Below are positions 5,751 through 62,971 of a DNA stretch of 64,000 nt, in pieces. A model generated the notes under the pieces. It had not been told where the DNA came from. It saw only the letters and a program-made list of their open reading frames with translations, and made no database searches. Position 1 is the stretch's first letter. The number at the start of each line of letters is the position of its first letter. Position numbers and translations under genes: made by a program. The DNA is from a virus, in IMG/VR virus record IMGVR_UViG_3300032675_000009, positions 19,314-83,313 of that record. One strand, 5' to 3'.

Positions 5751-5802
5751 TAAGGCATGTCCGGATTCGGACATGGATTTCGAGTAAGGGACAGGGACAA
5801 CC

Positions 5803-6696
5803 ATGGGCATTTTTGACGATGTACTTGCAGAGCAGGTGACGGACTCCACAGACCGCGAGGTACTGGCGGGGTATGCAAAGAAGTATCCAGGCTTGGAAAA
5901 GGCCGTCTTGGCGCAGCGAGAGTTTTCTCGCAGGATGAATGAACTCACCGCCAAGGAGATCGAGTACAAGCAGGACAGGGAACAGTTGACCGCTTGGGAG
6001 GCGTGGCGGGATCAACACTGGGACGGTGAGTCGAAAATGACGAAGGCGCAGAAGGCGGCCTACGATCGACTCAATGCAGCAGAAGCAAGGGTAGCAGAGT
6101 TGATGGCATCACAAGGGACAGGTAACGAAATGACATTTGACGAGATCCAACAGAACCTCGTGCGCGAGGGATACGTGAAGAAGGGCGACATTGAGCAGTT
6201 CGCTAAGCAACTCAATCTCGTCGACTCTAACGGACTCACGACCGGCCTGCAAAACCAGGCAAAGGCGTTCGAGCATATCTACGTGAAGGCGACCCCGTTC
6301 ATCCGGAAGTTCGAGCGGGAATTCAACGAGGACATGGATTTCGAGGCGTTCTACAAGACGATCGCAACACCAGAAGCGATCGCGGACATTCCGGCTGCTT
6401 ACGAGAAGTTCATCGCACCGAAGCGCGCTGAGTTGCAGGTCAAGAAAGCGCAGCAGCAAGTGGAAGAACTGAACAAGCAGATCGAAGAAAAGAAGACCGT
6501 CGCGAACAGCGCCGGCCAGCCTACTGACAACGGAGCGCCCGTAATGGGCCACATGCAGAAGGCGGCGATGGAACGTGCCAAGGGCGGAGACCCGGCCGCA
6601 TCGCTCGACAAGATTACGGCGCCACTCGGTTCTGGCGCCTTGGCGTCGGCCATCGCGGCCGATTACGCAAAGCAAAGCGCCGGAGGAACGGCGTAG
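5803..6696 (+). CDS. Probable capsid scaffolding protein
   Basis: Charged coiled-coil protein immediately upstream of the major capsid gene. Confidence 0.65.
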   Translation: MGIFDDVLAEQVTDSTDREVLAGYAKKYPGLEKAVLAQREFSRRMNELTAKEIEYKQDREQLTAWEAWRDQHWDGESKMTKAQKAAYDRLNAAEARVAELMASQGTGNEMTFDEIQQNLVREGYVKKGDIEQFAKQLNLVDSNGLTTGLQNQAKAFEHIYVKATPFIRKFEREFNEDMDFEAFYKTIATPEAIADIPAAYEKFIAPKRAELQVKKAQQQVEELNKQIEEKKTVANSAGQPTDNGAPVMGHMQKAAMERAKGGDPAASLDKITAPLGSGALASAIAADYAKQSAGGTA

Positions 6697-6847
6697 GGAC
6701 GAACAATGAACTATCGCTCTATTTCATCTCGACACCACGAGCAGGGGACAGTGAGTGGTGGCCGGACTCCCGAGTATCTTGGCGGGGGAAAACCTTTACC
6801 CACAACCCCTAGTTCGCAAGAACTAGTCACTGTCAAGGAGAATTAAC

Positions 6848-7822
6848 GTGGCCCTAACCCTCACGGAAATCAACAGCTACACCGTCCCATTTATCGTACC
6901 CAGGACAAGCGACACAATCTTTAAAAATAGTCCTGTCTTTACGCGCCTTCAGACCAAGCAGCGGCAGCGGTTCACCGGTGGTACGCAAATTCAGCGGCCG
7001 ATCATCGTTGGCGAACTGAACGGTGATTTCGTCAACCGTGGTGAAGCGATGAACATCGACTTCGTGACCACGGACACGGCCCTGGTCAACAACATGAAGC
7101 TGTGCTACGTGACCATCGCGCTGTACGGTTACGACAGCATGCTGAACGACGGGCCGGAGGCGATCTTCAGCCAGGTCGAAACCAAGTTCCTCAACGCGTC
7201 CATGAAGATGGCGAAACTGATGGGGACCAACATGTACCTGGACGGCACGTCGACCAGCGGCCGCACCAAGTACCTGAACGGTTTTTCGGAGTGGATCGAC
7301 GACGGCAACCTGTATCCCTCGGTCGGCGGCATCAACCGTGCGGACATCGTGCCAGTTGGAACGGTCGGTGGCCTGAACGCGTACACCGCGACCATGACCA
7401 GCTTCCAGTTGCAGACCGTGAACTCGGCTTACGGACAAGCGTGGTTCGGCGCCGACCATCCGGATTTGATCCCGTCGACACAGAACGGCTGGAACTTCAT
7501 TTGGAATGCGCTGCAGCCCAGCCAGCGTTACCCTGACCCCAACGGCGACATGGCGACCACCGGGTTCCAGTCGTTCCGATTCAACGCGGCGGATGTCGTG
7601 GTTGACAAGTACATGCCGACCGGCACCTCCGGAGTCATGTTCCTGCTGAACACCGATTACATCGAGTGGTACTTCAGCACCAACCCCAAGTTCCAGTTCG
7701 GATTCACCGGTTTCAAGGAACAGGTCAATTCGATCGACGTGGCCGGAGAATTCCTCTGCGGCTCCAACATCGTGTGCCCCAACCCCAGAACCTCGGCCAA
7801 GATCCTGAGCACGCTGTTCTAA
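6848..7822 (+). CDS. Major capsid protein
   Basis: AAGGAG RBS, GTG start, 324 aa, strongly biased codon usage; DTIFKNSPVFTRL..GGTQIQRPI N-terminus typical of HK97-fold podovirus coats. Confidence 0.88.
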   Translation: MALTLTEINSYTVPFIVPRTSDTIFKNSPVFTRLQTKQRQRFTGGTQIQRPIIVGELNGDFVNRGEAMNIDFVTTDTALVNNMKLCYVTIALYGYDSMLNDGPEAIFSQVETKFLNASMKMAKLMGTNMYLDGTSTSGRTKYLNGFSEWIDDGNLYPSVGGINRADIVPVGTVGGLNAYTATMTSFQLQTVNSAYGQAWFGADHPDLIPSTQNGWNFIWNALQPSQRYPDPNGDMATTGFQSFRFNAADVVVDKYMPTGTSGVMFLLNTDYIEWYFSTNPKFQFGFTGFKEQVNSIDVAGEFLCGSNIVCPNPRTSAKILSTLF

Positions 7823-7850
7823 GGAAGAAAGAGAAAGGAGACCAAAGAAC

Positions 7851-8354
7851 ATGACTATCACAGACGTAGCAGTTGGCCTCGGCGGGTTGGTGACACTTCG
7901 CAAGTTCACCATCCCCTACAACGACCCCAACCTGATCGCGCTTGGAGCGGTGACGGCCGGCAATGTGAACTTGGCGGTGTCGTCCTTGACAAATGCGCCG
8001 ATTCAGCCGACGACAAGCCCAGTGCAGGGATACCTACTGAATCAAGCGGCAAAGATTCTCGGTGTCTGTATTCACCACACCACGGCGTTCACCGGAACGG
8101 GTCCGCTCACTGCCCTCACGGTCAGCGTCGGAAATTCGATCAGTAACACTCAGTTCACCAACACTCAGGACATTTTCCAGGCAACTGGAGACACGGTGCT
8201 GTTGGAAACCGGTGGCCTGTTCAAATGCGGCCAGATCACCCCCAGCCAAGTCTTTGCTCGGTTCACTGCGACAGGCGGAAACCTGAACGTGCTAACGGCC
8301 GGCTCGGTGGATATTTACGTGATGTTTACGGACGTCACCAGTCCAAGTGAATAA
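7851..8354 (+). CDS. Probable capsid decoration/structural protein
   Basis: beta-rich, ends LTAGSVDIYV; follows the capsid gene with a strong RBS. Confidence 0.6.
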   Translation: MTITDVAVGLGGLVTLRKFTIPYNDPNLIALGAVTAGNVNLAVSSLTNAPIQPTTSPVQGYLLNQAAKILGVCIHHTTAFTGTGPLTALTVSVGNSISNTQFTNTQDIFQATGDTVLLETGGLFKCGQITPSQVFARFTATGGNLNVLTAGSVDIYVMFTDVTSPSE

Positions 8355-8363
8355 AGGGGAACC

Positions 8364-8987: not shown

Positions 8988-9009
8988 ACGGGGGATCGCA
9001 ATCATGATG

Positions 9010-9050
9010 GCCCGCTCTATATCCGGATTCGGACATGGGGCGGGCTTTTT
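9010..9050 (+). terminator. Rho-independent terminator containing a copy of the dispersed motif
   Basis: GCCCGC...GCGGGC plus T5; ATATCCGGATTCGGACAT forms the upper stem-loop. Confidence 0.75.
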
Positions 9051-9067
9051 CAATTAACAGGTACTGA

Positions 9068-10552: not shown

Positions 10553-11194
10553 TTGCCCTCGATTCCGCTTTCTGAACTGCAGGCTCGTGTGTATCGAAGG
10601 GTAGAGGATAATTCACTCTTCTACCCTGAGTACCAGGTAACCAATGCGATCAACGAGGCCCTGCAAGTTCTCAATCTGTTCACCGGGTATTACCAGACCA
10701 CCCTGCAGATCGGGCTCAGCGTGGCCAATCGATTTTTCTATAACATCCCGAACAACATGATCTTCCCGATGCAGGTGTACATTGATCAGCGCATGATCTA
10801 CAAGTCGCCGCTGTCGGATACTTGCCGGATGGTGACTAACTTCTTGCGCAATGATCAACTGCAGGACGGGTCTCCGCTGTATTGGGTGCCGATTGGAATT
10901 CGGTTGTTTGTGCTGACGCCGGCGGATACGACGGGTGGCCGGCAACTGGAAGTGGTTGGGGTGGTGGAGCCGCCGGTGCTCGCAGCCAGTACCGACGTGG
11001 CCCAACTTTCAGATAGCTGGATGGAGTTGATCGAGGACTACGCGTTCTATACGTTGGTCCTAACGGAAGGCGGAAAAATCTTTGCCGACGCAAGCAAGCT
11101 GTTTCAGAAGTTTCAAAAGCGCATGGGCGAACTTCAGATGTGGCAATTGCAGATCAACCCTCGATACTTTGTCGAAGTGGAGAATCAAAAATAA
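10553..11194 (+). CDS. Adaptor-like tail protein
   Basis: LSELQARV...INEAL and ELIEDYA adaptor-like pattern; synteny. Confidence 0.6.
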   Translation: MPSIPLSELQARVYRRVEDNSLFYPEYQVTNAINEALQVLNLFTGYYQTTLQIGLSVANRFFYNIPNNMIFPMQVYIDQRMIYKSPLSDTCRMVTNFLRNDQLQDGSPLYWVPIGIRLFVLTPADTTGGRQLEVVGVVEPPVLAASTDVAQLSDSWMELIEDYAFYTLVLTEGGKIFADASKLFQKFQKRMGELQMWQLQINPRYFVEVENQK

Positions 11195-12040
11195 ATGGCT
11201 GTCTTGGTGGGGACCATCATCTCGGCGGTTTGCGATGTCATTCTCGAGCCGTATATCAATGGGGACTTCACTGCCGGCGGAGGGCCGCAACTCGGCATTA
11301 TTACCGAGGCGGACCTGCTGGCCACCTATCAAGTTGTGATCACGGACTTTCTTCAGCAAGCGGGATTGGTCAAGAGGGCATGTGGGATTCTCCAGCAATT
11401 TGGAGTGAGCACCTACAACGTGATCAATTCGGCCAATGATGTCCAGGAGGTATTTTCCGACCAGGTAGCTCTCTTCACCACCGATGGATTCGATCTTGAC
11501 CGAGAGAATCCGGTATGGCAACAGATGGTAGGGACGCCGTGGGAGTGGAGACAGGACAGGACCAAGATGAAAAGCTTCGTTGTTATTCCGGCGCCAGACG
11601 GTACGGGTTCGACCGTATACGAATCAACGGGCTTGGGGGGATACGGAACGCTGTCGGCATTCAACAATGGAACAATTTCCATATCCTTCACCAATGCAGG
11701 CTATGGAACTCTTTCTGCAGACTCCGGAACGATGGCGTTATTGCCGGCCAACCTCGGCATTGGAACGCTGTCCAGTATCATCCCAGCACAGGGCAATTTA
11801 ATGCCGGTGGCAACGGCCGGGCTGAGCACGTCACAAGTGTACATGGGGTCAATCATGGAAGCCCTACCGGACAGCTTCGCGTGCTATATCAAATACGGAA
11901 TTTTGGCTAAATTGTTTTCTGCGGACGGCGAATTGAAAGATAACCAGCGGGCGATTTATTGTCACGCTCGCTACCTGGAGGGGGTCAATATGGCCAAGGC
12001 AATCACTAAGGAAATGATTGGATCGAGAGGAGTGAAATAA
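11195..12040 (+). CDS. Adaptor-like tail protein
   Basis: LPDSF..YIKYGILAKLFS..GE C-terminal pattern; synteny. Confidence 0.55.
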   Translation: MAVLVGTIISAVCDVILEPYINGDFTAGGGPQLGIITEADLLATYQVVITDFLQQAGLVKRACGILQQFGVSTYNVINSANDVQEVFSDQVALFTTDGFDLDRENPVWQQMVGTPWEWRQDRTKMKSFVVIPAPDGTGSTVYESTGLGGYGTLSAFNNGTISISFTNAGYGTLSADSGTMALLPANLGIGTLSSIIPAQGNLMPVATAGLSTSQVYMGSIMEALPDSFACYIKYGILAKLFSADGELKDNQRAIYCHARYLEGVNMAKAITKEMIGSRGVK

Positions 12041-12496
12041 ATGTCTTCAGCGGCGATAGCAACGTTTCGAGAATTGTACCTACAAGACCTCGCAATAGGA
12101 ACGGCAGAGGGGCAAACAGATACGGTTAACGTTCTCGGAGTTGGCCCCACGGCGCTTACCAAGATTACGTTGGCTAGCTTGGCGGCGTCTCTCGTAAACG
12201 CACCAACCGGAGATGCCGCTGCGGGTGCGGCCGGAGTGAGGACTGGGGTTCTGTATGTGGGTCCCGGCGGCGGACTATGCGTGAAGGGCCCAGATGCCGC
12301 CGTCGTGGCCACGGCGAATGGAAGCCAGACTTCTTTTTCCTACACTTTTACAAATGGCTGCTACGCCTGTTTGGGGTTCGTCGGCGGCGCACTGCAGGCG
12401 CCTTCCACTATGGCGGTGGTAAGCGGTGTAGCAACGATGACCCTTGGAACCCCGCCGGCATCTGGAACTCAAATCATATTCGTGAGGACCGCATAA
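12041..12496 (+). CDS. Hypothetical virion protein
   Basis: AGGAG RBS; beta-rich C-terminus. Confidence 0.55.
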   Translation: MSSAAIATFRELYLQDLAIGTAEGQTDTVNVLGVGPTALTKITLASLAASLVNAPTGDAAAGAAGVRTGVLYVGPGGGLCVKGPDAAVVATANGSQTSFSYTFTNGCYACLGFVGGALQAPSTMAVVSGVATMTLGTPPASGTQIIFVRTA

Positions 12497-15400
12497 TGCG
12501 AAAAGTGCTAACGCTTCTCATTGTCATGTCCGGATTCGGACATGCTCAAGCCCCTCCAGCTACTGTGCAGTTGACGCACGTAGACAACATAACTAGCTCG
12601 AGCGGGACAATCATAGACAATCGAAGTGCGGCGTACCGGCAAAACAACGCACACCTGTTTTGCGCGATTGGCCCCGGAACATGGTCGGTGACCATCCAGT
12701 ACCAAGACGGATCGACAACTGGAAGCTGGACAAATTTCTCGGACCCGACTGCAACCGTTGCGGGAAGTCCTCTGTGTGTCGGAGCCGCGAATGGGTATCA
12801 CGATTACATAAGGTTTTCATTTTCCGGAGCTAATGCTTCAACCGTTTCGGTTTCGTATTCAGGGCTGAGGAATGTTTACCAATTGACCTACGCGACATCG
12901 GCATCTGGACCGGCCGGGGGAGATCTATCCGGTTCATATCCGAACCCAACCGTAGCCAAAATCAACGGAACGTCGTTGGCGAGCCTTGCATCAGGGTTGA
13001 TGTTCAACACTAATGGGACCGGCGTTCCATCGATCGTCACGAGCCCCAGCGTGATCATCAGCCTTTTCAGTGGATGCTCGGGCACGCAGTATCTGGGTGC
13101 GGACGGATCATGCCACACGCCGGGCACAATAACCTCAATCACGACCAATTCGCCTGTAACCGGCGGACCCGTAACATCCGGAGCTATCACGCTCGGCTGT
13201 CCCGGTTGCGTGACATCTTACCTGCCTGGAGTCGGCGTTGCTCACTTCGCCGGTGGTAATCAGGTGGTCACTAGTTCCGCTGTCAGCTTGACGGCCGATG
13301 TATCTGGAACGCTTCCAGTGGGTAATGGTGGGACCGGAACAGCAAGCACTCTCACTGGGCTAGTGCGTGGCGGGCCGAGCGCAATGACAGCTTCGGAGTT
13401 GTCAGGAGACGCCACAACGAGCGGCAGTAACGTCGTAACGGTTTCCAGGATCAACGGGACCTCGCTGGCCGGTCTTGCTTCCGGGGTACTATACAACACC
13501 ACAGGCACGGGAATATTGTCGATCGCGCCGGTACAAGGCAATGGATCTAAGGTTCAGTTGAGCACCGGAACCACCACGACTGGCCATTGCGTACAATACG
13601 ACGCAAGCGGCAATACGGTAGATGCCGGCGCATTGTGTGGAACGATAACGGCATTGACCGGTGATGTGGTAGCAAGTGGTCCGGGAAGCTCGGCGGCTAC
13701 AGTAAAGGCCGTAAACGGCACCACGCTAAGTAGCTTGGCAACAGGACTTTACTGGAACACGACGGCTACCGGAGTACCAAGCATAGCAACCGGATCCCAG
13801 GTGTTGGGGGTGATCGGCGCCGGCAATATCGGAAATTCATATTTGACGAATAGCGGCATCACATTCGGTTCTACTGCACAGGCGCTCGGCTCAACGGTAA
13901 CAAACCTAAATGGCGTAAATGTGGGCCCGTCGACACCTGCAACCGGATCCTTCACTTCTCTGTCGGCATCAACGTTGACAGTGAACGGGGCGGCTAGCAG
14001 CCAATTGGTGAGTTACTTCAAAAGCCCAACCGGAAATGCAAGTTACCTGGAAGTAGGAAGCGCTAGCAGTAACTACGCCGAATTAGAAGGGGATTCTTCC
14101 GGCAATTTTCTTCTAGGCCATTATGGCGTCACGAGTGGAGTACTGCAAAGCATTCGATCTGGCGCTGTGTCAGGTACGATCGTAATGCAAAACGGTAACG
14201 TGCGAATGCAAAGCTTGGGGACCGGGCCCGTTGTCAGCAATTCGGGGGTTCTCGGAAATGCGACAGTGGCGAACTACAACGGCATCTTGCCGGTAACGCT
14301 TTGTACGGCGTGCGCGCTCAATGGAACCACGGACGACACCGCAGCGTTTCAGACGTGGCTCAACTCCGTCGCCAACGGCAGTACCCCAGTCACGATCTCT
14401 CTTGCGGGAAAGACGGTGTACCTATCCTCTCCTACGCTTCAGTCTCCGTTTACGATCCCGTCTAATGTGCAATTTATCGGTCCTGGGACTATCAAGGGGA
14501 CGGCCGTAAATGAGACCGGAGGATATCCTCTGCCAACATCGTACATTTCGATTGCTGGCACGTTGGGGACAGCCTACAGCTACGGATCGACCATCGCACA
14601 GGGAACTAGTGCGTTCACGCTGAGCAATGGCTTCAGTGAGGCCCAGATGTTCCTGCTGAGCAATTTCCCCTACGACAGTTCTCACGCAACCGGGACGTAT
14701 CCGCAAGGGTCCGACACTTGCACGTTAGTAACGGGCAATCCCCAAAATCAGTGCTCGTACCCGGTAGCCATTGCAACCACCAAGGGAACGGCATCGGGCT
14801 CGAGCACCACCTTGACGGTTTCATCTGGGGCCGGGACAGCCAACGGTCAGTACATCGCCGGAACAAACATTCCGGCCAATACGACAATCGTAAGTGGTGG
14901 CGGCACAACAACGTGGACGATCAGCAACGCCACAACGGGCGCGATCAGCGGCGCGACCATTAACACTTACGCGACGGCGGCGCTTGCGGTTTTGAATAAC
15001 GATGTGGGTCAAGAAGGGCCAAATAATCAGCGCCAGAATCGGCGCGAAGAAGTCGGCTTAATTCGCTCGGCTACTGGGTCTTCAATATTACTCATGGAGC
15101 CTGTTGTTCAGGCTTATACATCCACCACGGCCCTGCAATTTCAGGTTGTGAATCCGGCTCAAAATATTGAATTTTATGGAGTCACGCTTAGCGGCCTCTG
15201 GATCCAGATGGACCTGAGTAAGAATGTGTCATTTCGCGGCGGCAATTGGTTTCAGACTTCGATCGGATATTCCCGATCGCTGTATGGCACGATGGACCCG
15301 GACTACGACGACGCGCAGAACTGCGATTGCGGCGTAGCCGTGGGACTCGGATCTCGGCACATGGACATTCGCGGAAACTACGGTAACGGAGCAATCAATA

Positions 15401-16551
15401 GCGACAACGGCCTAGTTCGTTGCGACATGTGCTCGGACACCACCATCAACGTGAATCTCGGAGGCACGTCTCAATCTCCATCAGGAGTATCCGGTGGAGA
15501 GGTGATGGAAAACATCATTGTGGACACAGGCTATTTCGAGAATCCGACAGGTTACACCTCGGGGGGAGACTACAACCTCAACATCAAGGCGACGGCGGCG
15601 CAGAATCCTTGTCAGGTCGGCCTTGTGATGTTCGGCTCTTCGCTGGCTCCGATTGAAAACGTTAACATTGAGTGGAACACCGAGGCCGTCCAGGGGACTA
15701 CCTCGACATGTTACGGCGCGGCCGTTCAGATGTCCGGCGTTAGCAGCGGTCGACTGAACATGGAAGACCCTTACGGGACGCTGTATGTGCAGGGAACGCA
15801 CGATGTCAAATTAAGCGGTCATGCTCATCGGTTTTATAGTGCGGCCCCGGTAACGTTGCCCTATGGTTGGGGTTCTTCGTGGAACAACGATGCTCTCGAC
15901 TTCAACGGCATCACGTTTGTTTCTGCTTCCACAGATGGCACAGCAGGAGTTACGCCGATGTACTGCCAGTATTGCGACCATACCAAACTGTCCAATGTTA
16001 CTTTTGACCAGCGCAACTACAACAATGGAGTGAACATCGGGAACACCAGCACAGATATCTGGTATGGAAATGTGAACTGGCTGATGACAGGCGCGGCCAC
16101 GCCGGCGTTTGATTGCTCGGCATTCACTGGGACGCTCCACATTCTAGGCGATGTGCAGTACCAGAACGCTATCAACGTGTCCGACTGTGGGACAACCTCG
16201 ACCTACCTGCACGGGTTCACATCCAACTACGGCGCGACGATCGGAGATCCTACCAGTTCCAGCCAGATCGTAAATATCAGCCGCCATGTGCGGTACGTGA
16301 ACAGTTCATTCAACCCCGGCACCGTCCCGGCCGGAGGGGTATATTCACTTAGTGGGCAATCGCTGTATTCAGTCGCCCTAGGAGAGGCCGTCAGTTGCGG
16401 ATTCTCTGCGCTAACAGGATCGTATTCCGCTATGACTATTGGTGCCAATGTAACGGCATTCGGTACTATCCAGGTAAACCTCTACAACCCGACTGGAAGT
16501 TCTCTAGCGCCTGGTGCCGGCCAAGTAACCTGTGACGCATTCGTTCACTAA
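12496..16551 (+). CDS. Tail fibre/tailspike with pectate-lyase-like beta-helix and signal-peptide-like N-terminus
   Basis: Probable start ATG 12496 (TAATG coupling); G/T/S-rich fibre repeats (GDLSGSYPNPTV, INGTSLA); GTTDDTAAFQ beta-helix entry motif. Confidence 0.75.
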   Translation: MRKVLTLLIVMSGFGHAQAPPATVQLTHVDNITSSSGTIIDNRSAAYRQNNAHLFCAIGPGTWSVTIQYQDGSTTGSWTNFSDPTATVAGSPLCVGAANGYHDYIRFSFSGANASTVSVSYSGLRNVYQLTYATSASGPAGGDLSGSYPNPTVAKINGTSLASLASGLMFNTNGTGVPSIVTSPSVIISLFSGCSGTQYLGADGSCHTPGTITSITTNSPVTGGPVTSGAITLGCPGCVTSYLPGVGVAHFAGGNQVVTSSAVSLTADVSGTLPVGNGGTGTASTLTGLVRGGPSAMTASELSGDATTSGSNVVTVSRINGTSLAGLASGVLYNTTGTGILSIAPVQGNGSKVQLSTGTTTTGHCVQYDASGNTVDAGALCGTITALTGDVVASGPGSSAATVKAVNGTTLSSLATGLYWNTTATGVPSIATGSQVLGVIGAGNIGNSYLTNSGITFGSTAQALGSTVTNLNGVNVGPSTPATGSFTSLSASTLTVNGAASSQLVSYFKSPTGNASYLEVGSASSNYAELEGDSSGNFLLGHYGVTSGVLQSIRSGAVSGTIVMQNGNVRMQSLGTGPVVSNSGVLGNATVANYNGILPVTLCTACALNGTTDDTAAFQTWLNSVANGSTPVTISLAGKTVYLSSPTLQSPFTIPSNVQFIGPGTIKGTAVNETGGYPLPTSYISIAGTLGTAYSYGSTIAQGTSAFTLSNGFSEAQMFLLSNFPYDSSHATGTYPQGSDTCTLVTGNPQNQCSYPVAIATTKGTASGSSTTLTVSSGAGTANGQYIAGTNIPANTTIVSGGGTTTWTISNATTGAISGATINTYATAALAVLNNDVGQEGPNNQRQNRREEVGLIRSATGSSILLMEPVVQAYTSTTALQFQVVNPAQNIEFYGVTLSGLWIQMDLSKNVSFRGGNWFQTSIGYSRSLYGTMDPDYDDAQNCDCGVAVGLGSRHMDIRGNYGNGAINSDNGLVRCDMCSDTTINVNLGGTSQSPSGVSGGEVMENIIVDTGYFENPTGYTSGGDYNLNIKATAAQNPCQVGLVMFGSSLAPIENVNIEWNTEAVQGTTSTCYGAAVQMSGVSSGRLNMEDPYGTLYVQGTHDVKLSGHAHRFYSAAPVTLPYGWGSSWNNDALDFNGITFVSASTDGTAGVTPMYCQYCDHTKLSNVTFDQRNYNNGVNIGNTSTDIWYGNVNWLMTGAATPAFDCSAFTGTLHILGDVQYQNAINVSDCGTTSTYLHGFTSNYGATIGDPTSSSQIVNISRHVRYVNSSFNPGTVPAGGVYSLSGQSLYSVALGEAVSCGFSALTGSYSAMTIGANVTAFGTIQVNLYNPTGSSLAPGAGQVTCDAFVH

Positions 16552-22402: not shown

Positions 22403-22403
22403 T

Positions 22404-26725: not shown

Positions 26726-26726
26726 C

Positions 26727-38647: not shown

Positions 38648-38648
38648 C

Positions 38649-47483: not shown

Positions 47484-47494
47484 TAAGTATTTTG

Positions 47495-47881: not shown

Positions 47882-48247
47882 CTATGTTCGCGTACTGCCG
47901 AATCGTGATGCCAAGTAATCGAAGTCACTCGACCTAGTAACTTTGGAATCCTTGTTGTCATCGCCGTACTGCACTTCAGCCCAAGTGACATGGCTAGAAC
48001 CATCTTCGCAGTACTGCTCACGAAGTCTCTTAATGAACTGTTCGCGTCGGGTGTCGCCGTCACTCGATTCCTTCCAGCCATCTTTCGAGCCGTCTGGAGG
48101 AATGAAGAAGCTCCAGTAGTCGTTCACCTGAGAACGTAAAACTGAAGACACCGAAGGAAAGATCCCCGTAGCCAACGCGTGTGCACTCTGTATGTATTCG
48201 TCAGACCAACTGGTTACCACTATTGCGTGGTGACTCATATACCCCAT
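47882..48247 (-). CDS. Hypothetical protein
   Basis: ORF with PDGSKDGWKES motif. Confidence 0.6.
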   Translation of the reverse strand: MGYMSHHAIVVTSWSDEYIQSAHALATGIFPSVSSVLRSQVNDYWSFFIPPDGSKDGWKESSDGDTRREQFIKRLREQYCEDGSSHVTWAEVQYGDDNKDSKVTRSSDFDYLASRFGSTRT

Positions 48248-50794: not shown

Positions 50795-51123
50795 GTGCGC
50801 ACCCCGGGGCCTATGCGGCGACTCAACTCCTTCTGTAGATCCGCCAGCGCGCTCATACACTTAGCGATGTGTGAGTCTAGGTATTCCGCGACCGAAGCAA
50901 ACTTACCTCGGTGATAGGCGAACACTAGCGCACCAAGTGGGATAGCTGTGACGATCGAAATGGCGTGCAGCCGGTTGGCACCATCAGGGTCTCGCCGCAA
51001 GATGCCCACGAATAGCTCAGCCTCGTGGGGGAAGTTGAACGTGTGGGCCCGCTCAGAAATGTCACATTCCGGGACGGTCCATTCAACACGCATGCCGTTG
51101 ATCTTGAAAGGGGTAGCCAGCAT
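50785..51123 (-). CDS. Hypothetical protein
   Basis: ORF in operon. Confidence 0.5.
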   Translation of the reverse strand: MLATPFKINGMRVEWTVPECDISERAHTFNFPHEAELFVGILRRDPDGANRLHAISIVTAIPLGALVFAYHRGKFASVAEYLDSHIAKCMSALADLQKELSRRIGPGVRTCP

Positions 51124-51592: not shown

Positions 51593-52284
51593 TTAAATTC
51601 ACCCTGGAGCTTCTTCGCCATCTGGTTGATCACGGTCTGATTGAACTCGATCAGGCAGACCTCCTGAACCACGCCCTTGACCGCGACCGAGTGCATCAGT
51701 GGAACCTCACCGGCTGCGATAGCCTTGATGAGAGCCATTGGGTCATTCACGGCGCCGATCCAGGGCATTGATTCGCGTACACCCTCCAGCTTGGGTGTAG
51801 CGGGCTCCTGATGGACGACCGCCGCGCTCTCCTCAACCGCCTGTGTGATCTGTTGAGCTTCCTTGACAAAGCCCTGTTTGATCAACTTGGCCGCCGCCGC
51901 CGCAGCCTGCTCGCGTTCCTTACGGGCCTCCTCGTCGCGTTTGTGCTGCCCGGCTTGGGCCGCCATCAACTGTTGGCGTTTCCAGTCGCCCATCTTGGCT
52001 CCGATCTGCCAGCGAAGATTGTCGAGTGGCTTCTTGAACCGGTTGATCTTGTCACAGATGCTTTTATGGAGCTTGTGCGCCATGTCTCGATCAGGGCCGA
52101 AGAAATCCTCGACCTGCTTCTCGAATGAGGCCACGCGGTTAAGAGCATCGCCGGCCGCCCGGTAGTCATCCTCGCTCTTGATATTGAGGGTAGTAATGGA
52201 AACCTCGACCAAGGCTAACTCGCTTGTCAGTAGCGAGGTGTCCTTCGAGGTGTTGATCGTTACCGTCTCGTTTGTTGTCGTCAA
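51538..52284 (-). CDS. Coiled-coil phage protein of recombination module
   Basis: TTG start overlapping the upstream stop; helical composition. Confidence 0.6.
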   Translation of the reverse strand: MTTTNETVTINTSKDTSLLTSELALVEVSITTLNIKSEDDYRAAGDALNRVASFEKQVEDFFGPDRDMAHKLHKSICDKINRFKKPLDNLRWQIGAKMGDWKRQQLMAAQAGQHKRDEEARKEREQAAAAAAKLIKQGFVKEAQQITQAVEESAAVVHQEPATPKLEGVRESMPWIGAVNDPMALIKAIAAGEVPLMHSVAVKGVVQEVCLIEFNQTVINQMAKKLQGEFKWPGCSAHQEIRFSGRKS

Positions 52285-52886
52285 GGTAGTAGTCCGTTCT
52301 GCTGGCGAAACTTCCAGATCGCCAGCCCGTTGAGCCATAGATTTACCCACTTCTGCTCGGAGTAGTCCACCAAGGTGAACTTTCCGCTCTCTTCAAGGCG
52401 AACCGCCTTCGCCTTGTCGGGCACTAATCCCTTACATTCCCGGAGCATGTGCCGGTACGCCCCGAGTTGAATACCCACTCCAGCCGGCAGGGTCCCGCTC
52501 TTCAGGTCCAGCAGCCAATACTCAGGGCCGACCATGCCGAACTGGTCAAGGGTCCCGGCTGTTGAACTCGCCTTGGAGTAAACGGGCTCCTCACACAGAA
52601 TCGCCTTGAAGCCCGTTTGCTTCAAAAAGTCCTCGTAGGCCCGCACGAACGGAACGATCTTAGGATGCGTTCCGCTTTCACTGTACGTGCCTTCTTGGAC
52701 ATACCGACAGGCCAGGTGTACCGCATGCCCTCGCTTGCGGTACACCTCATCACGTTCCCAAGGCCCGCCCTTGCGGAGCCCCAAGTCCGTCATGATCCTG
52801 CTGACGCCGAACATTTCATTGCCACCGAAATAATACCGGTGCTCGGTCGCGTCGAACTGGATCTCGTCTTGTCCGAATTCGGACAT
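52281..52886 (-). CDS. PD-(D/E)XK (RecB/Cas4-like) exonuclease
   Basis: RGHAVH, E..V, AGTLD, DLKSG, QLGAY. Confidence 0.85.
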   Translation of the reverse strand: MSEFGQDEIQFDATEHRYYFGGNEMFGVSRIMTDLGLRKGGPWERDEVYRKRGHAVHLACRYVQEGTYSESGTHPKIVPFVRAYEDFLKQTGFKAILCEEPVYSKASSTAGTLDQFGMVGPEYWLLDLKSGTLPAGVGIQLGAYRHMLRECKGLVPDKAKAVRLEESGKFTLVDYSEQKWVNLWLNGLAIWKFRQQNGLLP

Positions 52887-55460: not shown

Positions 55461-55970
55461 CTACTGATAACCCAGGCGCCGCATCTGTTTTTCGAGTATC
55501 GCGACGGCTCGCATCTTGCGGTTCTTGCGAGCTTGCACAGTGCAACCAGTAAATTCGTCTTCAGCTAAGTACGCAAGCATAACATCGCGCAAGATCGGCG
55601 TTTGCTTCTCGATACAAGCCAGCATATCGCGAGACCTCTGTTCTTGATAGGCCACCTGCTCGGGAGAAGGATCCCCGGACCGGCAATCAAAGCCTTCCGC
55701 GAAGGGTATTTCTCGATCATAGTATCGCTTGTGCGGCCGAACAATAGAGCAAGCGCAGTTGACGACGATCGCGTGAACCCACGACGCCAGATTGGCGTCC
55801 TGTCGGAACGTGTGTCGAAACCGCCAGGCGTTGGCGTAGGCATCCTGAACAGCGTCCTCTGCACGGTCCAGGCCAACAGTCCGTGCAGCCACACGCAGAT
55901 GACGTGTGTGGTAGTTGGTAAACACCTCGATGAGTCTGGCTTGCATGTCCGAATCCGGACATCGCGCCAT
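55461..55970 (-). CDS. ECF-type RNA polymerase sigma factor
   Basis: AEDAVQDAY..AW..F...ASWVHAIVVN region 2; region-4-like C-terminus. Confidence 0.8.
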   Translation of the reverse strand: MARCPDSDMQARLIEVFTNYHTRHLRVAARTVGLDRAEDAVQDAYANAWRFRHTFRQDANLASWVHAIVVNCACSIVRPHKRYYDREIPFAEGFDCRSGDPSPEQVAYQEQRSRDMLACIEKQTPILRDVMLAYLAEDEFTGCTVQARKNRKMRAVAILEKQMRRLGYQ

Positions 55971-55977: not shown

Positions 55978-57018
55978 CTAGTCCCCATCGATGGTGAATT
56001 CCCCCTCGCTGTTCAGTCTATACCAAGTATCCGCCTTCAAATTGCCGTCAGAGCCATCTCCGCAGCCGATCAGCGCGCACCGCATTTCCCCGCGTTCCTC
56101 TTTGGGGTTCCACCAAGCCAAGGCGATACAGCCATACTTGCCGGCCTTAGCTCTACCGTACAGGCCAGTAACTACGGCCGCGCCACTCCATCCGGTGGCG
56201 GAGGCCGCGCCACTCTCTCCGGTGGCGGAGGCCGCGCCCCTCGCTCCGGTGGCGGAGGCCGCGCCACTCGCTCCGGTGGCGGAGGCCGCGCCCCTCGCTC
56301 CGGTGGCGGAGGCCGCGCCCCTCGCTCCGGTGGCGGAGGCCGCGCCCCTCTCTCCGGTGGCGGAGGCCGCGCCACTCCATCCGGTGGCGGAGGCCGCGCC
56401 ACTCCATCCGGTGGCGGAGGCCGCGCCCCTCGCTCCGGTGGCGGAGGCCGCGCCACTCCATCCGGTGGCGGAGGCCGCGCCACTCTCTCTGGTGGCGGAG
56501 GCCGCGCCACTCCATCCGGTGGCGGAGGCCGCGCCACTCTCTCCGGTGGCGGAGGCCGCGCCCCTCGCTCCGGTGGCGGAGGCCGCGCCACTCGCTCCGG
56601 TGGCGGAGGCCGCGCCACTCGCTGAAAGGCTGACAAGATTCATTTGGCCTGCGAGCACAAAAGCTGTCGCTTCAACCCATGAGCCGACAAGGCGAATCAC
56701 GCCACGCTTTGCCTTGCACTTACCGCCAAGATTTACAACATCTTCCGGTTTGGCCCCGAAGACAATCCAGCATGCGGACCATTCGCAGTTTTTCCCGTCG
56801 CCCAAGGATAAACCCCAAGGCCAACCGTGCAAACCGCCACCGCAAGATGGGGTCGTAGTCCAATCCGGCGCCTTAACCTCAGCGCCAATTTCCAGCGGCC
56901 ACTTGAACCCGCCATAGGCTTCCCCTGTGAGGGACACGTGCTTGACGATGAGAACCTCATCGCCGCCGTTGGTCCACTGATGCGCTTCCGATAAACTCCA
57001 GATCTTCTCCTCGTTCAT
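55978..57018 (-). CDS. Phage protein with 16 GAASATGxx repeats
   Basis: CGGGLHG N-domain, 9-aa repeats, LKADTWYRL C-terminus. Confidence 0.8.
   Translation of the reverse strand: MNEEKIWSLSEAHQWTNGGDEVLIVKHVSLTGEAYGGFKWPLEIGAEVKAPDWTTTPSCGGGLHGWPWGLSLGDGKNCEWSACWIVFGAKPEDVVNLGGKCKAKRGVIRLVGSWVEATAFVLAGQMNLVSLSASGAASATGASGAASATGARGAASATGESGAASATGWSGAASATRESGAASATGWSGAASATGARGAASATGWSGAASATGWSGAASATGERGAASATGARGAASATGARGAASATGASGAASATGARGAASATGESGAASATGWSGAAVVTGLYGRAKAGKYGCIALAWWNPKEERGEMRCALIGCGDGSDGNLKADTWYRLNSEGEFTIDGD
56176..56621. repeat. 27-bp tandem repeat, about 16.5 copies
   Basis: GGTGGCGGAGGCCGCGCC(A/C)CTCnnTCC units. Confidence 0.95.
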
Positions 57019-57601: not shown

Positions 57602-58236
57602 CGCATCCTCCGGGCCATCTCCATGTCGCTCTCAACCTCAGTGGGAAGCCCGCCCGTAACGGAGCGGGTCGCTGACTTCAATTCCGTGATGTTGATGCGG
57701 AACCGCCGGCCGTCGTGTGAAGCCACAATATCGCCGTCCGAGATAAGGTGCTCATTGGTCACCAAGCCAGCAGATCCACAATGGACCGCCGGTGTGGCTA
57801 TTATGGACTTTTTTCCGATGATGAACGCCGCGTTTAACTCGGCGGCAATCACTGCGACCAAATCATCCGGCGAATTGTACCATCCGCTGGAACTGTCTTG
57901 CGTTCCCCGAACGATCATTTCCGCGCGGTTTTCCCACTCTTGAGCAAGCGTTCCCCGGTCACCCACTGAGGGTATTGGCTGGCCGCTATCTGGCAGTGCG
58001 TCAGGAACCGGAGGAATGATTTGCCCTTTAGGGGCCTTATCGTAGGTTTCGCCGCATTCAACGCAAATGACGTAGCTTTTGCGGCTATCCGTGTTGACGT
58101 GCTGGCAGTGCGGGCACTGCCAGACGATTGGTGGTTTTTGTTCGTCGGAATCGCAGCACTCCGGCGTTGTGTCGATGCATCCATGTGGTGCATTCTCATC
58201 TTTCTCCATCCACTTCGGGCGTTTTCCCTCACTCAT
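57598..58236 (-). CDS. Hypothetical Zn-ribbon protein
   Basis: CPHC..CVEC; AGGAG RBS. Confidence 0.55.
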   Translation of the reverse strand: MSEGKRPKWMEKDENAPHGCIDTTPECCDSDEQKPPIVWQCPHCQHVNTDSRKSYVICVECGETYDKAPKGQIIPPVPDALPDSGQPIPSVGDRGTLAQEWENRAEMIVRGTQDSSSGWYNSPDDLVAVIAAELNAAFIIGKKSIIATPAVHCGSAGLVTNEHLISDGDIVASHDGRRFRINITELKSATRSVTGGLPTEVESDMEMARRMR

Positions 58237-60172
58237 CACTGTTACTCCTTTGTTGGGCAGCGGGTTGCGGATGGCAGTGCTCATGGAGTCTTCGTGAAGC
58301 TAGTTTAGAAATCAAGTAAGCCAGTTCGCCCTCGGGCCCGGCTGGAAAATCAGAGCGAACAGGATGCGCCGATCCCTCAATCCGTAACACTTTCGGCTGC
58401 TCAATGGCTGGCATGGCCTTCGGGTGAATTGGGCAATTCTGCTCACCGGTGTGCTCGTAAACCGACCGGCACAACTCACATTCGATCTTGGCAAGTTCGG
58501 AATCTACGTCTTCGCCTTGACACTGCGAACAGATGCCATCGACGTAATCGCAGCCAGTTGTCCGGCACTTGTAATTGAGTTCCTCGCGGGTCTTGCGCTT
58601 ACTCTTCGGGGTCGGACGGTATTGCTGGGTCCGTTCTCCGATCCAAAGCTTACCGGCCGCAGCGTGCTGGTTAAATCGGTCCAAGAGATCCTTGCGTTTC
58701 CATTTCAGGTGAACCGTTCCCTTCTTGAAGCATCGGATTTCAAAGTATTCCGATTCGGTGAGGGCTCCAGCTTGGGGTCCCTTGTTGATAGCAGCCCCGA
58801 CAGTGAAACACTTGTCGAATGGTTGGCCATCCAACACGCAAAGAATGCGGTCCAGGTCAGAATAAATCCTTGTGGAATCACCCGAATATTGCAGTGCAAC
58901 GCGACCGTTGTAATCCAGTCGGCAGCCCCAAGGGAATACCAGCCGTTCGTTGACCTTGTACGAATCGTTGGTCTTCCAGCCTTCGCTACGCCGGCCCTTG
59001 ATAGTGGATGGCATTACCGGCCCGGATCCGTTCTCTACTGCGTGGCTACAAAGCTCATCGAACACATTCGCAACGGACTCATCGAATAGTTTTGTTCGCG
59101 ACAGGAACACGTTCTCCAGAGTGTTCTTGATATTGTCAGCGGTGAACGGAATCGTAGCGTCGCGCTCAACGTCTTTCATGAACCGTTCCTGCTGTTTACT
59201 GTCCAGCCATCGGCCGAACTCCATCTGCGTGAAAACGCTTTTCCACGCGAGCTTGCGATGCCGCAACAGAAACTCAGCCCTGGCGGAATGAGTGTTAGAA
59301 AGCGCCATGGCCGCAATCTTCCCGAAATTATCCTCGTCGGAATAGTGGTGATCGTTGACCTTGTTCTGAGACATGTACAGGGCGGCCCGGCGCAGCTGCT
59401 CGATGCCTCTGACGAAGTGCTGGTTCGCCATGTTGTACCAATGCTCCATGTTCCCGAGGTTGTCCCGGATAGCGATGAAGTTGATGTCGTCGCCAACTTC
59501 GATGTCGTAAACCTTCTCGCTTGTGCGCTTGGCTTCGCTAGCCCACATATCGGCGGTGTCGTCCGGCGCCGTCTTCTTGAGGTACACCATGGCCACCTCA
59601 ACGTTCGTGCGCCGCTCCGCAGTGTCGAAACAGGTTCCCAGGTACTCTACTTGGCCGGCTGCGGCAATGATGTCAGTCAACCGTTTCCTATCCTCGGTGT
59701 ACGGATTGTCAATCGTCTCCCGATTGAGCAGGCAAACAATCTCTCCATTGTGCAGGAAGTCCCACGCCTTCAGGAGGTGCGCGTCCCCGTTAGAGAACGG
59801 GGGATTCATGATGATCGCGTCGTAGTAGCTTATGCCGCCGTAGTCGAGCCAGTCATAGCCCACAACGGTATACTCCTTGCTACGAAGAACCGCAGCAAGT
59901 TCCGGGTGTGGTTCGATCACGTCGATATTCACCCGGCGATTCTTGTCCTCGTACGCATAGCCATAAAAACGTTCGTGCTTATATTCAGGATGTTCTTCCT
60001 TAAACTCCTCGTAGGTTATCGGCCGCCGAATGACGTCAGCCAAGTCACCCTTGCCGGCGCTAGGCTCCAGGAAATACTTGGCGTCCTTGCTGATCTTCGC
60101 CAGCATCCGCCTCGCGAAAGCGCGTGGCGTTGGGAAGAATTCGGCGGAAAACATATTTCCGTTTCGTTGCAT
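58229..60172 (-). CDS. Class I SAM-dependent N6-adenine methyltransferase with DUF4942-like domain
   Basis: FFPTP, LEPSAGKG, MNPPF; C-terminal YFEIRCFKKGTVHL. Confidence 0.85.
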   Translation of the reverse strand: MQRNGNMFSAEFFPTPRAFARRMLAKISKDAKYFLEPSAGKGDLADVIRRPITYEEFKEEHPEYKHERFYGYAYEDKNRRVNIDVIEPHPELAAVLRSKEYTVVGYDWLDYGGISYYDAIIMNPPFSNGDAHLLKAWDFLHNGEIVCLLNRETIDNPYTEDRKRLTDIIAAAGQVEYLGTCFDTAERRTNVEVAMVYLKKTAPDDTADMWASEAKRTSEKVYDIEVGDDINFIAIRDNLGNMEHWYNMANQHFVRGIEQLRRAALYMSQNKVNDHHYSDEDNFGKIAAMALSNTHSARAEFLLRHRKLAWKSVFTQMEFGRWLDSKQQERFMKDVERDATIPFTADNIKNTLENVFLSRTKLFDESVANVFDELCSHAVENGSGPVMPSTIKGRRSEGWKTNDSYKVNERLVFPWGCRLDYNGRVALQYSGDSTRIYSDLDRILCVLDGQPFDKCFTVGAAINKGPQAGALTESEYFEIRCFKKGTVHLKWKRKDLLDRFNQHAAAGKLWIGERTQQYRPTPKSKRKTREELNYKCRTTGCDYVDGICSQCQGEDVDSELAKIECELCRSVYEHTGEQNCPIHPKAMPAIEQPKVLRIEGSAHPVRSDFPAGPEGELAYLISKLASRRLHEHCHPQPAAQQRSNSDE

Positions 60173-61631: not shown

Positions 61632-61799
61632 TGCGCACCGCCGCGAACTTGGCCGCATTGCGCCGGCCGTTCTCGGATGCCAGCACCGGATCGGGGATGC
61701 TGGCGAGATTCCACGTGGGGCGGTACTTCATTTCCGCCGCTTTCCTTTCGGATGTTTTGGTCTGGCCGGAATATTTTTGGGCCTGTTAAGCGATGCCAT

Positions 61800-62024
61800 C
61801 TAGCGAGCCTCCCGCGTGTTCCGCGCGGTGCCGAGGCCGCGACCTTCATCCGGCGTGAAGAATAGCCGATGCTCCACATTGCCGGCGTCCATCTGATTCA
61901 TACGCATAGTGGATTCCGCTTTGCTACTGCTAGAGTATCCCGTGCTTTTCCATCCTTCGGACCGGCGCTTGCCAGTCCATCGGAATTGGATCTCATACAT
62001 TCCTTCAGGTGTTCCGTAGCTCAT
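61800..62024 (-). CDS. Hypothetical protein
   Basis: ATG 62024 with GAGG RBS. Confidence 0.45.
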   Translation of the reverse strand: MSYGTPEGMYEIQFRWTGKRRSEGWKSTGYSSSSKAESTMRMNQMDAGNVEHRLFFTPDEGRGLGTARNTREAR

Positions 62025-62279
62025 CTCGTTTAAATCCTCTCTGATGGCCTCATCAGTCCCGGCATCACCGGGAGACGCCCGAAGGCGTTTCGGCCTTATG
62101 CAACCTCCCACGGCTCCCAGCCAAAATTCCCTACGCAGCTCCAAGCGCGGCGAATGTAAGTGGTGCCCTCGAACTGCACAATGATGTCGCGCGGTGTGTT
62201 CATGTTTTCGTAAACTCGCGCCTTTTCTTGCTTGGTTGCTGCTGCTTTGATTGCTGTCAGTGTCATATCGTTAAACTCC

Positions 62280-62558
62280 TTAACAAGATGCGCCGCGTAA
62301 GTATGAGGCTAATACTATGGCGGACCGCTTCGCTGCGCGCTCTGGCGCGGTCCCAAATATCACCGCGAACCCATCGGTGCCGTCAACTCCGCAATATTGC
62401 ACGGTTTCTTGAGCTACGATGGCGTCGCGTTGCTCAACAATGGCACGCAGGGAATCGTAATTGTACGACCCGGCGGCCTTGAGTTCGGCGATTTTTTCCG
62501 CCTGAAAATTATTCAGATCTTGGATCGTGGGCAGTTTAATTATTTGGTTGTTCGTCAT
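62280..62558 (-). CDS. Hypothetical protein
   Basis: Downstream of the promoter at 62584-62612. Confidence 0.5.
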   Translation of the reverse strand: MTNNQIIKLPTIQDLNNFQAEKIAELKAAGSYNYDSLRAIVEQRDAIVAQETVQYCGVDGTDGFAVIFGTAPERAAKRSAIVLASYLRGASC

Positions 62559-62583
62559 CTCGTTTACATCCTCTCTATTAACT

Positions 62584-62612
62584 ACTTTACAGCATGGTGT
62601 TTTGTATGTCAA
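62584..62612 (-). promoter_or_regulatory. sigma70 promoter TTGACA-17-TAAAGT
   Basis: Near consensus; a copy of the dispersed motif lies 2 bp upstream of the -35. Confidence 0.6.
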
Positions 62613-62971
62613 GAGTGTCCGGATTCGGACACCTCATCCGGCACCGAAGCAGCCAACGCTGGGTTGAGGCCGCGCCGCGCCAGTTCATCACGCGCCGCTT
62701 CACTCAAGTAGAACCGTGGATTTACGGGGTGCGAAACCAGCGCCTTGAGCGTTTCCATTCCTAACCGCAGGTGCTCCATGGCTTCGGCTTCCACGATGTA
62801 GCAGTCCAGGTTGATGAGTTCGCACAGGTCGTCGATCTCAGGGTTCGTGAGGGGTTGACAATCCTCGAAGTGATCGCAACCGTCTTCGTCCTCCCCTATT
62901 CGTTCGATCTGGAACATTCGGAGGGCGTGCAGGATGGTTGCCAGTTCGCTGTCGCTCAGCTTGTGCGCCAT
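62609..62971 (-). CDS. Hypothetical protein
   Basis: Coupled ORF with GGAGG RBS. Confidence 0.6.
   Translation of the reverse strand: MAHKLSDSELATILHALRMFQIERIGEDEDGCDHFEDCQPLTNPEIDDLCELINLDCYIVEAEAMEHLRLGMETLKALVSHPVNPRFYLSEAARDELARRGLNPALAASVPDEVSESGHS

Follow-up and report, generated by a model that had tools for sequence, protein, structure and literature searches.

The 64,000-nucleotide stretch analysed here (the window) comprises bases 19314-83313 of the 83,313-base IMG/VR virus record IMGVR_UViG_3300032675_000009, and the phage to which it belongs is labelled G000 in our comparisons. Scattered along it is a nearly symmetric 14-mer, GTCCGGATTCGGAC, with 12 exact matches in the window and none in 100 dinucleotide-preserving shuffles. 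Eight of nine capsid-related genomes (G000 included) were found to carry a dispersed 14-bp dyad of their own. This clade is a natural experiment, as eight related genomes share one site architecture and display eight specificities. We hold, with moderate confidence, that the palindrome is a double-stranded DNA docking site of a phage-encoded symmetric (dimeric) protein, most likely one of two ParB/KorB-type helix-turn-helix (HTH) proteins; binding of the sites by a protein, the binder's identity and any activity in clamping, sliding or silencing are what we infer. Such fast turnover of specificity points to conflict among related phages.

A dispersed palindrome with counterparts in related phages

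An initial annotation of the window had listed 12 exact cores and four variants, and all of them were located again (its 18-mers begin two bases before the starts used here). The exact window copies are divided equally between strands, six on plus and six on minus, and the whole record holds 13 (seven forward, six reverse, against none for the reversed control pattern), the thirteenth being at record position 3416, outside the window. At up to two mismatches, the search returned 32 rows for the window against 0.78 expected, and 21 places in the whole record. Variant copies in the window start at 9021 and 52871 (one mismatch each) and at 23855 and 50507 (two mismatches each), while the weak two-mismatch places at 20364 and 21642 may be chance matches. 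When the copies are aligned, a unit of about 20 bp emerges, CAT-GTCCGGATTCGGAC-ATG or, in other terms, CATG-TCCGGATTCGGA-CATG, in which 8-bp arms surround the non-palindromic centre GATT and the right flank is better conserved than the left.

It was also proposed that selection acts here on DNA rather than on protein, the copies being read in several frames and both orientations. The latter is borne out: copies within open reading frames (ORFs) occupy varied frames and both orientations, for instance at offset 632 of ORF 22404-24239 (copy 23036), at offset 559 of ORF 26138-26725 (copy 26697), and inverted at 31415 and 32003. Together with the location of most copies at gene boundaries, this lends indirect support to selection on DNA. 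The centre of the G000 palindrome is asymmetric, and avoidance of restriction sites was considered as the cause and rejected, since GAATTC (30 against 27.6 expected) and GGATCC (29 against 25.3) are not depleted in this genome. It may apply in a relative, G006, where GAGCTC occurs once against 28.2 expected. Other 6-bp palindromes are avoided in G000: CCGCGG (1 against 30 expected), AGGCCT (3 against 19) and TTCGAA (4 against 19). The avoided palindromes of both phages are hints of their hosts' restriction systems.

When 2.9 million viral contigs were scanned with the 14-mer, 102 stretches came up, and the 80 listed are all single copies. An exact-match scan with the 16-mer over one genome for each of 185,579 species gave at least 120 stretches; the 80 listed hold one match each, in scattered and unrelated taxa, a yield that by a rough estimate is near chance level. 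Judged by these scans, the palindrome is neither a general repeat nor a host repeat. The element is a dyad within the 14-17 bp range, present in at least 10 copies across the genome, both between and inside genes, free of orientation bias and, among the matches listed, not arrayed in other genomes. The phage was present in about 20 metagenome runs from lakes or fresh water, all of them DNA runs. In four of 20 runs, window positions 20300-40299 are almost clonal, with 9 substitutions in 20 kb and no indels; none falls in the 10 motif places (eight strong copies plus 20364 and 21642), about 0.07 being expected by chance in the eight strong copies.

A search with the capsid protein gave 8 related loci, and one with an alignment of four capsid proteins gave 37. 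Eight relatives were compared as whole records: G001, G003 and G004 from the first search, and G006-G010 from the second, picked for a length of 94-106 kb and a rating as complete (completeness is 94% for G003, 100% for G009 and 75% for G001); G002 and G005 entered a pattern search. Simple k-mer and dyad counting revealed a dispersed dyad in seven of these eight relatives, and none in G004:

G003: GTCCAGATCTGGAC, 12 places at up to two mismatches
G006: GTCCGAGTTCGGAY, 28 places at up to two mismatches
G007: GTCCAACRTTGGAC, 29 places at up to two mismatches
G008: GTMCMACGTGGGAC, 30 places at up to two mismatches
G010: GTMMAATATTAGAC, 21 places at up to two mismatches
G009: GTATT-N4-AATAC, 15 places
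G001: CTCCTATATAGGAG, 14 places at up to two mismatches

Most of these motifs fit GTCC-N6-GGAC with a phage-specific centre. This pattern is 6-15 times over-represented in G000, G003, G006, G007 and G008 (counts of 18, 7, 9, 27 and 17 against 1.2-2.8 expected); G010 has 4 against 1.6 expected, and no over-representation was seen in G001, G004 and G009. The G000 and G003 motifs differ by a symmetric change (G to A in one arm, C to T in the other) and in the centre. As the inner six bases vary from phage to phage, what is conserved is the architecture, a 14-bp dyad with GT..AC ends. One position is shared as well: G000 (window 5759) and G001 (31846) each have their own, differing palindrome in the equivalent short gap, flanked by homologous genes, just upstream of the scaffold-like and capsid genes.

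Some copies are placed as operators would be. At record position 12126, the palindrome occupies the spacer of a promoter-like TTGACT-N17-CATTAT, and at 55851 of G001 that phage's own palindrome lies within the spacer of TTGACC-N18-TAACAT in the same register; the G000 copies 39705 and 62617 stand 4-6 nt upstream of strong -35 boxes. More generally, copies that are not inside a gene, or lie at most 60 nt from a gene end, exceed expectation in all eight motif genomes (11 of 18 against 5.0 expected in G000, p 3e-3; weakest in G003, p 0.08; strongest in G008, p 1e-6), though the genes were called with a home-made codon-score heuristic that takes the longest ORFs, which weakens these boundary statistics. 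The coefficient of variation of the gaps between sites is below 1 in all eight. Against a boundary-matched null, spacing is even at p<0.05 in five of the eight (Fisher's combined p 4e-7), the values for G000, G003 and G009 being 0.076, 0.58 and 0.44. With about 16-18 sites on an 83-kb chromosome, one per 4-5 kb, such even coverage fits a genome-wide role better than a local operator set.

Orientation and symmetry bear on whether the element works as DNA or as RNA. Over five genomes, 49 of 86 asymmetric copies are co-oriented with local genes (p 0.24), with splits of 9:9 in G007 and 8:8 in G010. Half-sites are degenerate in two relatives: in G008, 22 copies keep the right half ACGTGGGAC constant while the left half reads GTCCC, GTCCA or GTACA, and in G010 the half-site AATATTAGAC is constant and the other half degenerate. 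G009 has AT-rich arms and a free centre. The degenerate half-sites, the free centre and the missing strand bias argue against a hairpin function, and strand-independent, half-site-tolerant, sequence-identical sites are what would be expected of a symmetric protein that binds double-stranded DNA. The proposal that the palindrome is a binding site of such a protein thus receives indirect support, from the dyads of the same architecture in relatives, the missing strand bias and the degeneration of half-sites.

Individual copies and their genomic setting

The record is that of a tailed phage. Its plus strand carries the virion genes, among them those of the portal (2183-4066) and the major capsid protein (6848-7822), a tail-spike-like gene (22404-24239) and three ORFs of 1424-1956 aa; its minus strand carries the genes for replication and recombination, among them DnaB (41470-42903), a helicase (48965-50860), an exonuclease and a RecT-like gene. 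The copies in the window, with the elements that adjoin them and one candidate binder, are the following:

5759-5772, plus: exact core copy, lying upstream of the major capsid gene in the 52 bp that separate ORF 5334-5750 from the scaffold-like ORF 5803-6696
9021-9034, plus: variant with one mismatch (ATCC...), forming the tip of a hairpin that resembles an intrinsic terminator
9009-9051, plus: terminator-like stem and U-run around copy 9021; 9000-9055 folds at -28.9 kcal/mol (z -6.2)
12528-12541, plus: exact copy with complete CAT/ATG flanks; ORF 12041-12496 ends before it, and the 1424-aa ORF probably starts after it
23036-23049, plus: exact copy without CAT/ATG flanks, within the tail-spike-like ORF 22404-24239
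23855-23868, no strand assigned: variant with two mismatches and a GAATTC centre, within the same tail-spike-like ORF
26697-26710, plus: exact copy in the final 10 codons of ORF 26138-26725; the next gene follows
31415-31428, minus: exact copy, inverted, within the 1930-aa ORF 29373-35165
32003-32016, minus: exact copy, inverted, within the same 1930-aa ORF
36060-36073, minus: exact copy within minus-strand ORF 35812-36183
36250-36263, plus: exact copy; the 3' end of minus-strand ORF 36218-36691, RusA-like by eye, is 32 nt away
37198-38079, minus: 293-aa ORF (candidate B), with a predicted ParB-family-like DNA-binding domain fold
39705-39718, minus: exact copy 6 nt upstream of a strong minus-strand sigma-70-like promoter
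39670-39698, minus: promoter-like TTGACG-N17-TATACT, immediately downstream of copy 39705
47290-47303, minus: exact copy in a stretch of about 1.2 kb without a well-scoring ORF (46654-47882)
50507-50520, minus: variant with two mismatches, possibly a chance match, within helicase ORF 48965-50860
52871-52884, no strand assigned: fully symmetric variant with a GAATTC centre, overlapping the ATG of minus-strand ORF 52281-52886; GGAGG lies 10 nt upstream
55947-55960, minus: exact copy between the collagen-like ORF (ending at 55978) and the ATG (55946) of the ORF for a sigma factor resembling the extracytoplasmic function (ECF) type
62617-62630, plus: exact copy 4 nt upstream of a minus-strand promoter-like site
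62584-62612, minus: promoter-like TTGACA-N17-TAAAGT, adjoining copy 62617

Proximity to start codons and to a -35 box, which had been remarked on before, can be read directly from this list, since copy 52871 lies on an ATG, 55947 abuts one and 62617 is 4 nt from TTGACA. At record 12115-12235, a terminator-like hairpin with a T-run lies no more than about 100 nt after the promoter-like site that contains the palindrome, and there is no ORF; this unit may be a small RNA. The ECF-like sigma factor next to copy 55947 (55461-55946, minus) matches Pfam Sigma70_r2 (1.8e-7) and phrog_1740 (1.5e-12). On the other side of this copy, minus-strand ORF 55978-57018 contains a 27-bp tandem repeat of 16.6 copies (56176-56623), and its best-named PHROG matches are tail-fibre families (collagen-like minor tail at about 2e-5).

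CheckV rates the record 82% complete. An 18-bp tandem repeat (unit TCCCCGATGCTGGCCGAC) is present at both contig ends, at window 63834-64000 and record 24-110, and the record is therefore probably not an 82% fragment but a circle that was opened within the repeat. Window 1-25000 had no match by megablast among 50,697 phage records. Pfam and/or PHROGs scans took in 59 distinct ORFs of about 87 called, most small ORFs being without a family, and among these 59 no Cro/CI-type repressor turned up. The record gave no match at E<=1 to the ParA-type ATPase PF13614 (AAA_31), for which the control was positive in 14 of 14 genomes, and none to the tyrosine integrase PF00589 or the Y1 transposase PF01797. 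The idea of a phage RNA polymerase promoter found no match either (PF00940), and its control was silent everywhere too.

Other features of the record are a 51-bp tandem repeat of about 10 copies (record 15270-15780) within the gene of a 791-aa virion protein, and three methyltransferase-like minus-strand ORFs. Of these, 39754-40251 is a 165-aa N-terminal fragment of a C5-methylase, 41130-41486 a 118-aa Dam-like piece, and 58229-60172 (647 aa) combines PHROG DNA-methyltransferase matches in its N-terminal 220 residues or so with a DUF4942 domain, its Pfam Dam match being sub-threshold (0.0031; 17.6 bits against a cut-off of 28.1). A 135-aa zinc-ribbon protein (window 1751-2158) is encoded in all eight motif genomes and absent from G004; this protein and one of 167 aa (7851-8354) are probably virion or assembly proteins. 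As for the relatives, G003 has a second dispersed repeat, GTGAGCGAGCCA(TT), which is non-palindromic and present in about 14 copies, and G011 and G012 have a non-palindromic 18-mer with AGGAG and ATG in 4-7 copies, start-associated by its look. At 33555-36848 of G004, the large terminase homologue measures 1097 aa against 720-770 aa in the others, with an intein-like insertion by eye.

Candidate binding proteins and competing explanations

Under the explanation that we favour, a phage protein would first bind the palindrome, as KorB does at its sites (OB) or Noc at its own, and would then act on the adjacent DNA. A promoter would be occluded where the site lies in or beside it; elsewhere the protein might act at a distance, or coat and organise the chromosome. 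Its specificity would change fast, through a phage-specific inner 6 bp held within the conserved GT..AC frame.

The first protein that could fill this role, candidate A, has 282 aa and is encoded at record 11003-11851, 7.5 kb before the window; a copy of the palindrome lies 7 bp after its operon, and the homologue of G008 starts 7 nt after a copy. Candidate A matches phrog_1033, 'ParB-like partition protein' (2.7e-14), and a profile built from it and three homologues matches ParB 7o0n (8.6e-6), as well as sulfiredoxin, Spo0J and Noc, with Noc and ParB alignments extending to about residue 140. In its structure model, residues 1-150 have a predicted local distance difference test score (pLDDT) of about 76-94, and Foldseek returned ParB 7bm8 (1.4e-6), KorB 8qa9 (3.6e-6; root-mean-square deviation, rmsd, 4.0) and Noc (about 1e-6; structures 7ng0, 7nfu and 7ol9 are among the matches). 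Candidate A thus has an N-terminal fold of the ParB/sulfiredoxin type together with an HTH DNA-binding domain, and the model suggests a layout of N domain, HTH, disordered linker of about 60 aa and C domain.

Homologues of candidate A were found in G006, G007, G008 and G010, where the gene invariably belongs to a module upstream of the terminase genes, and none was detected by six-frame hmmsearch (E<10) and motif search in G003, G001, G009 and G004; the protein is therefore present in five of eight motif genomes and not in the single motif-less one, G004. By eye, its slot is taken by a sigma-region-4-like HTH ORF in G001 and by a ribbon-helix-helix-like 65-aa ORF in G003. No close viral relatives of candidate A were found. 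Outside the clade, tblastn detected homologues in two other GenBank phage genomes, MW202545.1 and MT835519.1, and two Salisaeta phage records matched over residues 41-109 only. MW202545.1, an unrelated phage, holds 8 exact copies of a 17-bp palindrome, among them those at 10176, 10203, 49119 and 49148, two inside the ParB-like gene and two beside the large terminase gene; in MT835519.1 no dyad repeats were found. Five further capsid-unrelated viral records with a homologue were chosen by length from 27 loci, and of these one contains 10 dispersed dyads, another contains 7 that cluster about 3 kb from the gene, and three have none. Exact-arm dyad counting in 20-kb loci, with 10 usable control loci, was too insensitive.

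Candidate B, the 293-aa protein, gave no useful sequence match in Pfam, PHROG or PDB. When residues 62-175 of its model were compared by VIA-align 2, the matches were ParB on parS (6s6h, Z 6.3, rmsd 3.1, 93 residues aligned), Spo0J (Z 5.9), KorB (Z 5.7 and 5.1), SopB (Z 4.8), VirB (Z 4.7) and P1 ParB (Z 4.1), where Z below 8 may reflect a common helical arrangement alone. The C-terminal 55 or so residues align to ribbon-helix-helix antitoxins (Z 3.4-4.1). The family is present in eight of the nine genomes, usually adjoining DnaB. The initial annotation had likened the palindrome to parS and named the protein at 37198-37950 (37198-38079 in our calls) for binding assays. Candidate A and the ParB/KorB-like fold of the named protein make a link to the ParB family plausible; the likeness of the palindrome to parS, in length and TGT..ACA ends, is a resemblance only.

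Besides the softness of the boundary statistics, several observations weigh against the explanation that we favour. In G000 taken alone, 10 of 14 copies are co-oriented with local genes (p 0.18), and the 20-mer as RNA folds at -11.5 kcal/mol (z -4.0). Candidate A has no match to Pfam ParB_N and reads DGFHRLAA where ParB has GERRxR and KorB GARRYR; DG(F/A)HR recurs in all five family members, with only the Gly and the second Arg kept, and this motif looks, on sequence, closer to that of sulfiredoxin. As DGFHRLAA replaces GERRxR, CTP-clamp behaviour of candidate A cannot be assumed. The main evidence against candidate A is that G003, whose motif is nearest that of G000, and G009 have a motif without it. 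Dyad repeats accompany its homologues in three of seven capsid-unrelated phages, an uncontrolled count that we treat as no more than suggestive. As regards candidate B, Foldseek of the model (pLDDT 77) returned nothing at E<=0.001, and its Z values are middling, a Rubisco chaperone having scored 6.5. Its family occurs in seven of the eight motif genomes and in the motif-less G004, and is missing from the incomplete G001, so that neither candidate matches the distribution of all motif phages. We give the two roughly equal weight, and leave room for an unrecognised protein or for both acting together.

It is also conceivable, although rather unlikely in our estimate, that the evenly spaced palindromes are a loading lattice from which a phage protein with a ParB-type DNA-binding domain marks the entire phage chromosome and acts on it, and that their fast-changing specificity is a self/non-self code between co-infecting relatives, akin to plasmid incompatibility or heteroimmunity. 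A bolder form of this idea takes the binder to be the 293-aa protein, whose gene adjoins that of DnaB in relatives, and the sites would then be multiple helicase-loading or replication-organising points instead of operators.

Other explanations leave out a phage-encoded docking protein. One is that the element acts in RNA or as a single-strand hairpin, with an 8-bp stem and a GAUU loop, as a terminator, RNase site, mRNA stabiliser or translational-coupling hairpin. On one hand, the folding energy and co-orientation in G000 suit such a role, copy 9021 tips a terminator-like hairpin, and many copies lie in very short gaps between co-directional genes; moreover, the G001 palindrome holds AGGAG 6-9 nt before start codons, plus its complement, and G003 copies stand 7-9 nt before ATGs. 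On the other hand, strand bias is absent overall, pairing is broken in the half-sites of G008 and G010, copies sit in promoter spacers and just upstream of -35 boxes, the 13 copies are identical in sequence beyond what pairing demands, and most are not followed by a T-run. We consider this explanation improbable.

Quite improbable, too, is that the phage makes use of a global regulator of its host, for which the palindrome would be the binding site; such use has been proposed for CtrA boxes in phages of Alphaproteobacteria (in the part of PMC9437464 available to us). It would account for the failure of either phage candidate to fit all motif-bearing phages, and the differing motifs could reflect differing hosts. 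Yet such sites are normally degenerate, whereas the 13 copies in this phage do not differ at any of 14 bp; the matches listed from the exact 16-mer scan of species genomes are scattered and single; and eight phages would need eight hosts with eight specificities in one GT..AC frame.

The role in partition envisaged earlier, with the palindromes as a true parS-like centromere array of a plasmid prophage, finds little to sustain it and appears very improbable. Plasmid prophages with partition systems do exist, as in N15 and P1, a ParB-family protein is encoded here, and the palindromes are of parS-like length. Against this, ParA-type AAA_31 and tyrosine integrase were not found in a record rated 82% complete (protelomerase was not searched for), and the sites are evenly dispersed and unclustered. 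The likewise suggested L5-like stoperator silencing does not agree with sites that are dyads, with co-orientation close to half, or with the integrase not having been found. Least credible of all is a selfish or mobile miniature palindrome resembling repetitive extragenic palindromic (REP) elements, which a phage enzyme would disseminate and which would be tolerated chiefly between genes, as the identical copies in tight intergenic spots and the one inside a terminator loop might suggest, since the Y1 transposase was not found, spacing is even, a position is shared by G000 and G001 despite different sequences, and the degenerate half-sites of G008 and G010 form no hairpin. A partition centromere, a stoperator set and an element of the REP and REP-associated tyrosine transposase (RAYT) kind are hence unsupported, because ParA, integrase and Y1 transposase were not found.

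Comparison with known systems

Repeated binding sites spread over a phage or a chromosome have several precedents. In the Streptomyces phage phiC31, a conserved inverted repeat (CIR) lies in many intergenic regions and is bound by the immunity repressor. The likeness consists in a conserved inverted repeat across one phage, and the difference in that phiC31 is temperate and its repeat serves an immunity repressor. Noc, a Bacillus ParB paralogue without a partition role, has many dispersed palindromic sites and tethers DNA to the membrane; here, too, many palindromic sites are distributed over one chromosome, but Noc is a cellular, membrane-tethering protein. The stoperators of Cluster A mycobacteriophages such as L5 are, in the accessible parts of PMC4351075 and PMC9283540, asymmetric, oriented with transcription and recognised by a monomeric immunity repressor of temperate phages. 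They resemble the present sites in being many, genome-wide and often located in short intergenic gaps, and differ from them in that ours are dyads without orientation bias in a phage in which no integrase was found.

The closest precedent, described in 2015, is that of Cluster O mycobacteriophages such as Corndog, which share with G000 a short, dispersed and orientation-free dyad with TGT..ACA ends, a ParB-like protein and no integrase or ParA found. According to the part of PMC4351075 available to us, the 17-bp dyad TGTTCGGNNNCCGAACA with TGT..ACA ends is present there in 34 copies in a phage of about 70 kb (14 between genes, 10 close to 5' ends and 10 within genes), is free of orientation relative to transcription, and is absent from the host and other phages. 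The same part of that paper reports no integrase or parAB and a protein with a ParB-like domain, and predicts a dimeric DNA-binding protein with a role other than control of transcription initiation. Our literature search for work after PMC4351075 found no functional study of these repeats. The Cluster O phages differ in host phylum and capsid lineage, in the arrangement of arms (7-3-7, against 5-4-5 plus flanks here) and in a repeat density about twice that of G000. They are also near-identical, so that specificity turnover is not visible among them, whereas here eight phages display eight specificities. What is new relative to Cluster O is therefore the conserved architecture with fast-changing specificity, the even spacing, the evidence against an RNA role, and the two concrete candidate binders, whose distributions disagree.

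KorB acting at OB is the nearest mechanistic model, and the predicted domain order of candidate A parallels that of KorB. The IncP plasmid RK2 carries 12 OB sites. As described in the accessible part of PMC11790492, KorB binds near-identical palindromes that extend over a replicon of about 60 kb and affects promoters both near and far; it is a ParB-family protein with an N domain, a DNA-binding domain, a long flexible linker and a C domain, and the phosphate motif GERRxR (GARRYR in KorB) is needed for CTP binding and clamping. KorB is thus a CTPase clamp with GARRYR, whereas candidate A has DGFHRLAA and candidate B is without an N domain; moreover, KorB works with IncC (a ParA) and KorA, and ParA was not found here. 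If a ParB-type protein does organise or silence the chromosome of a lytic phage without ParA and from sites at even intervals, it would be the phage counterpart of the plasmid KorB network and would represent a new function for the ParB fold.

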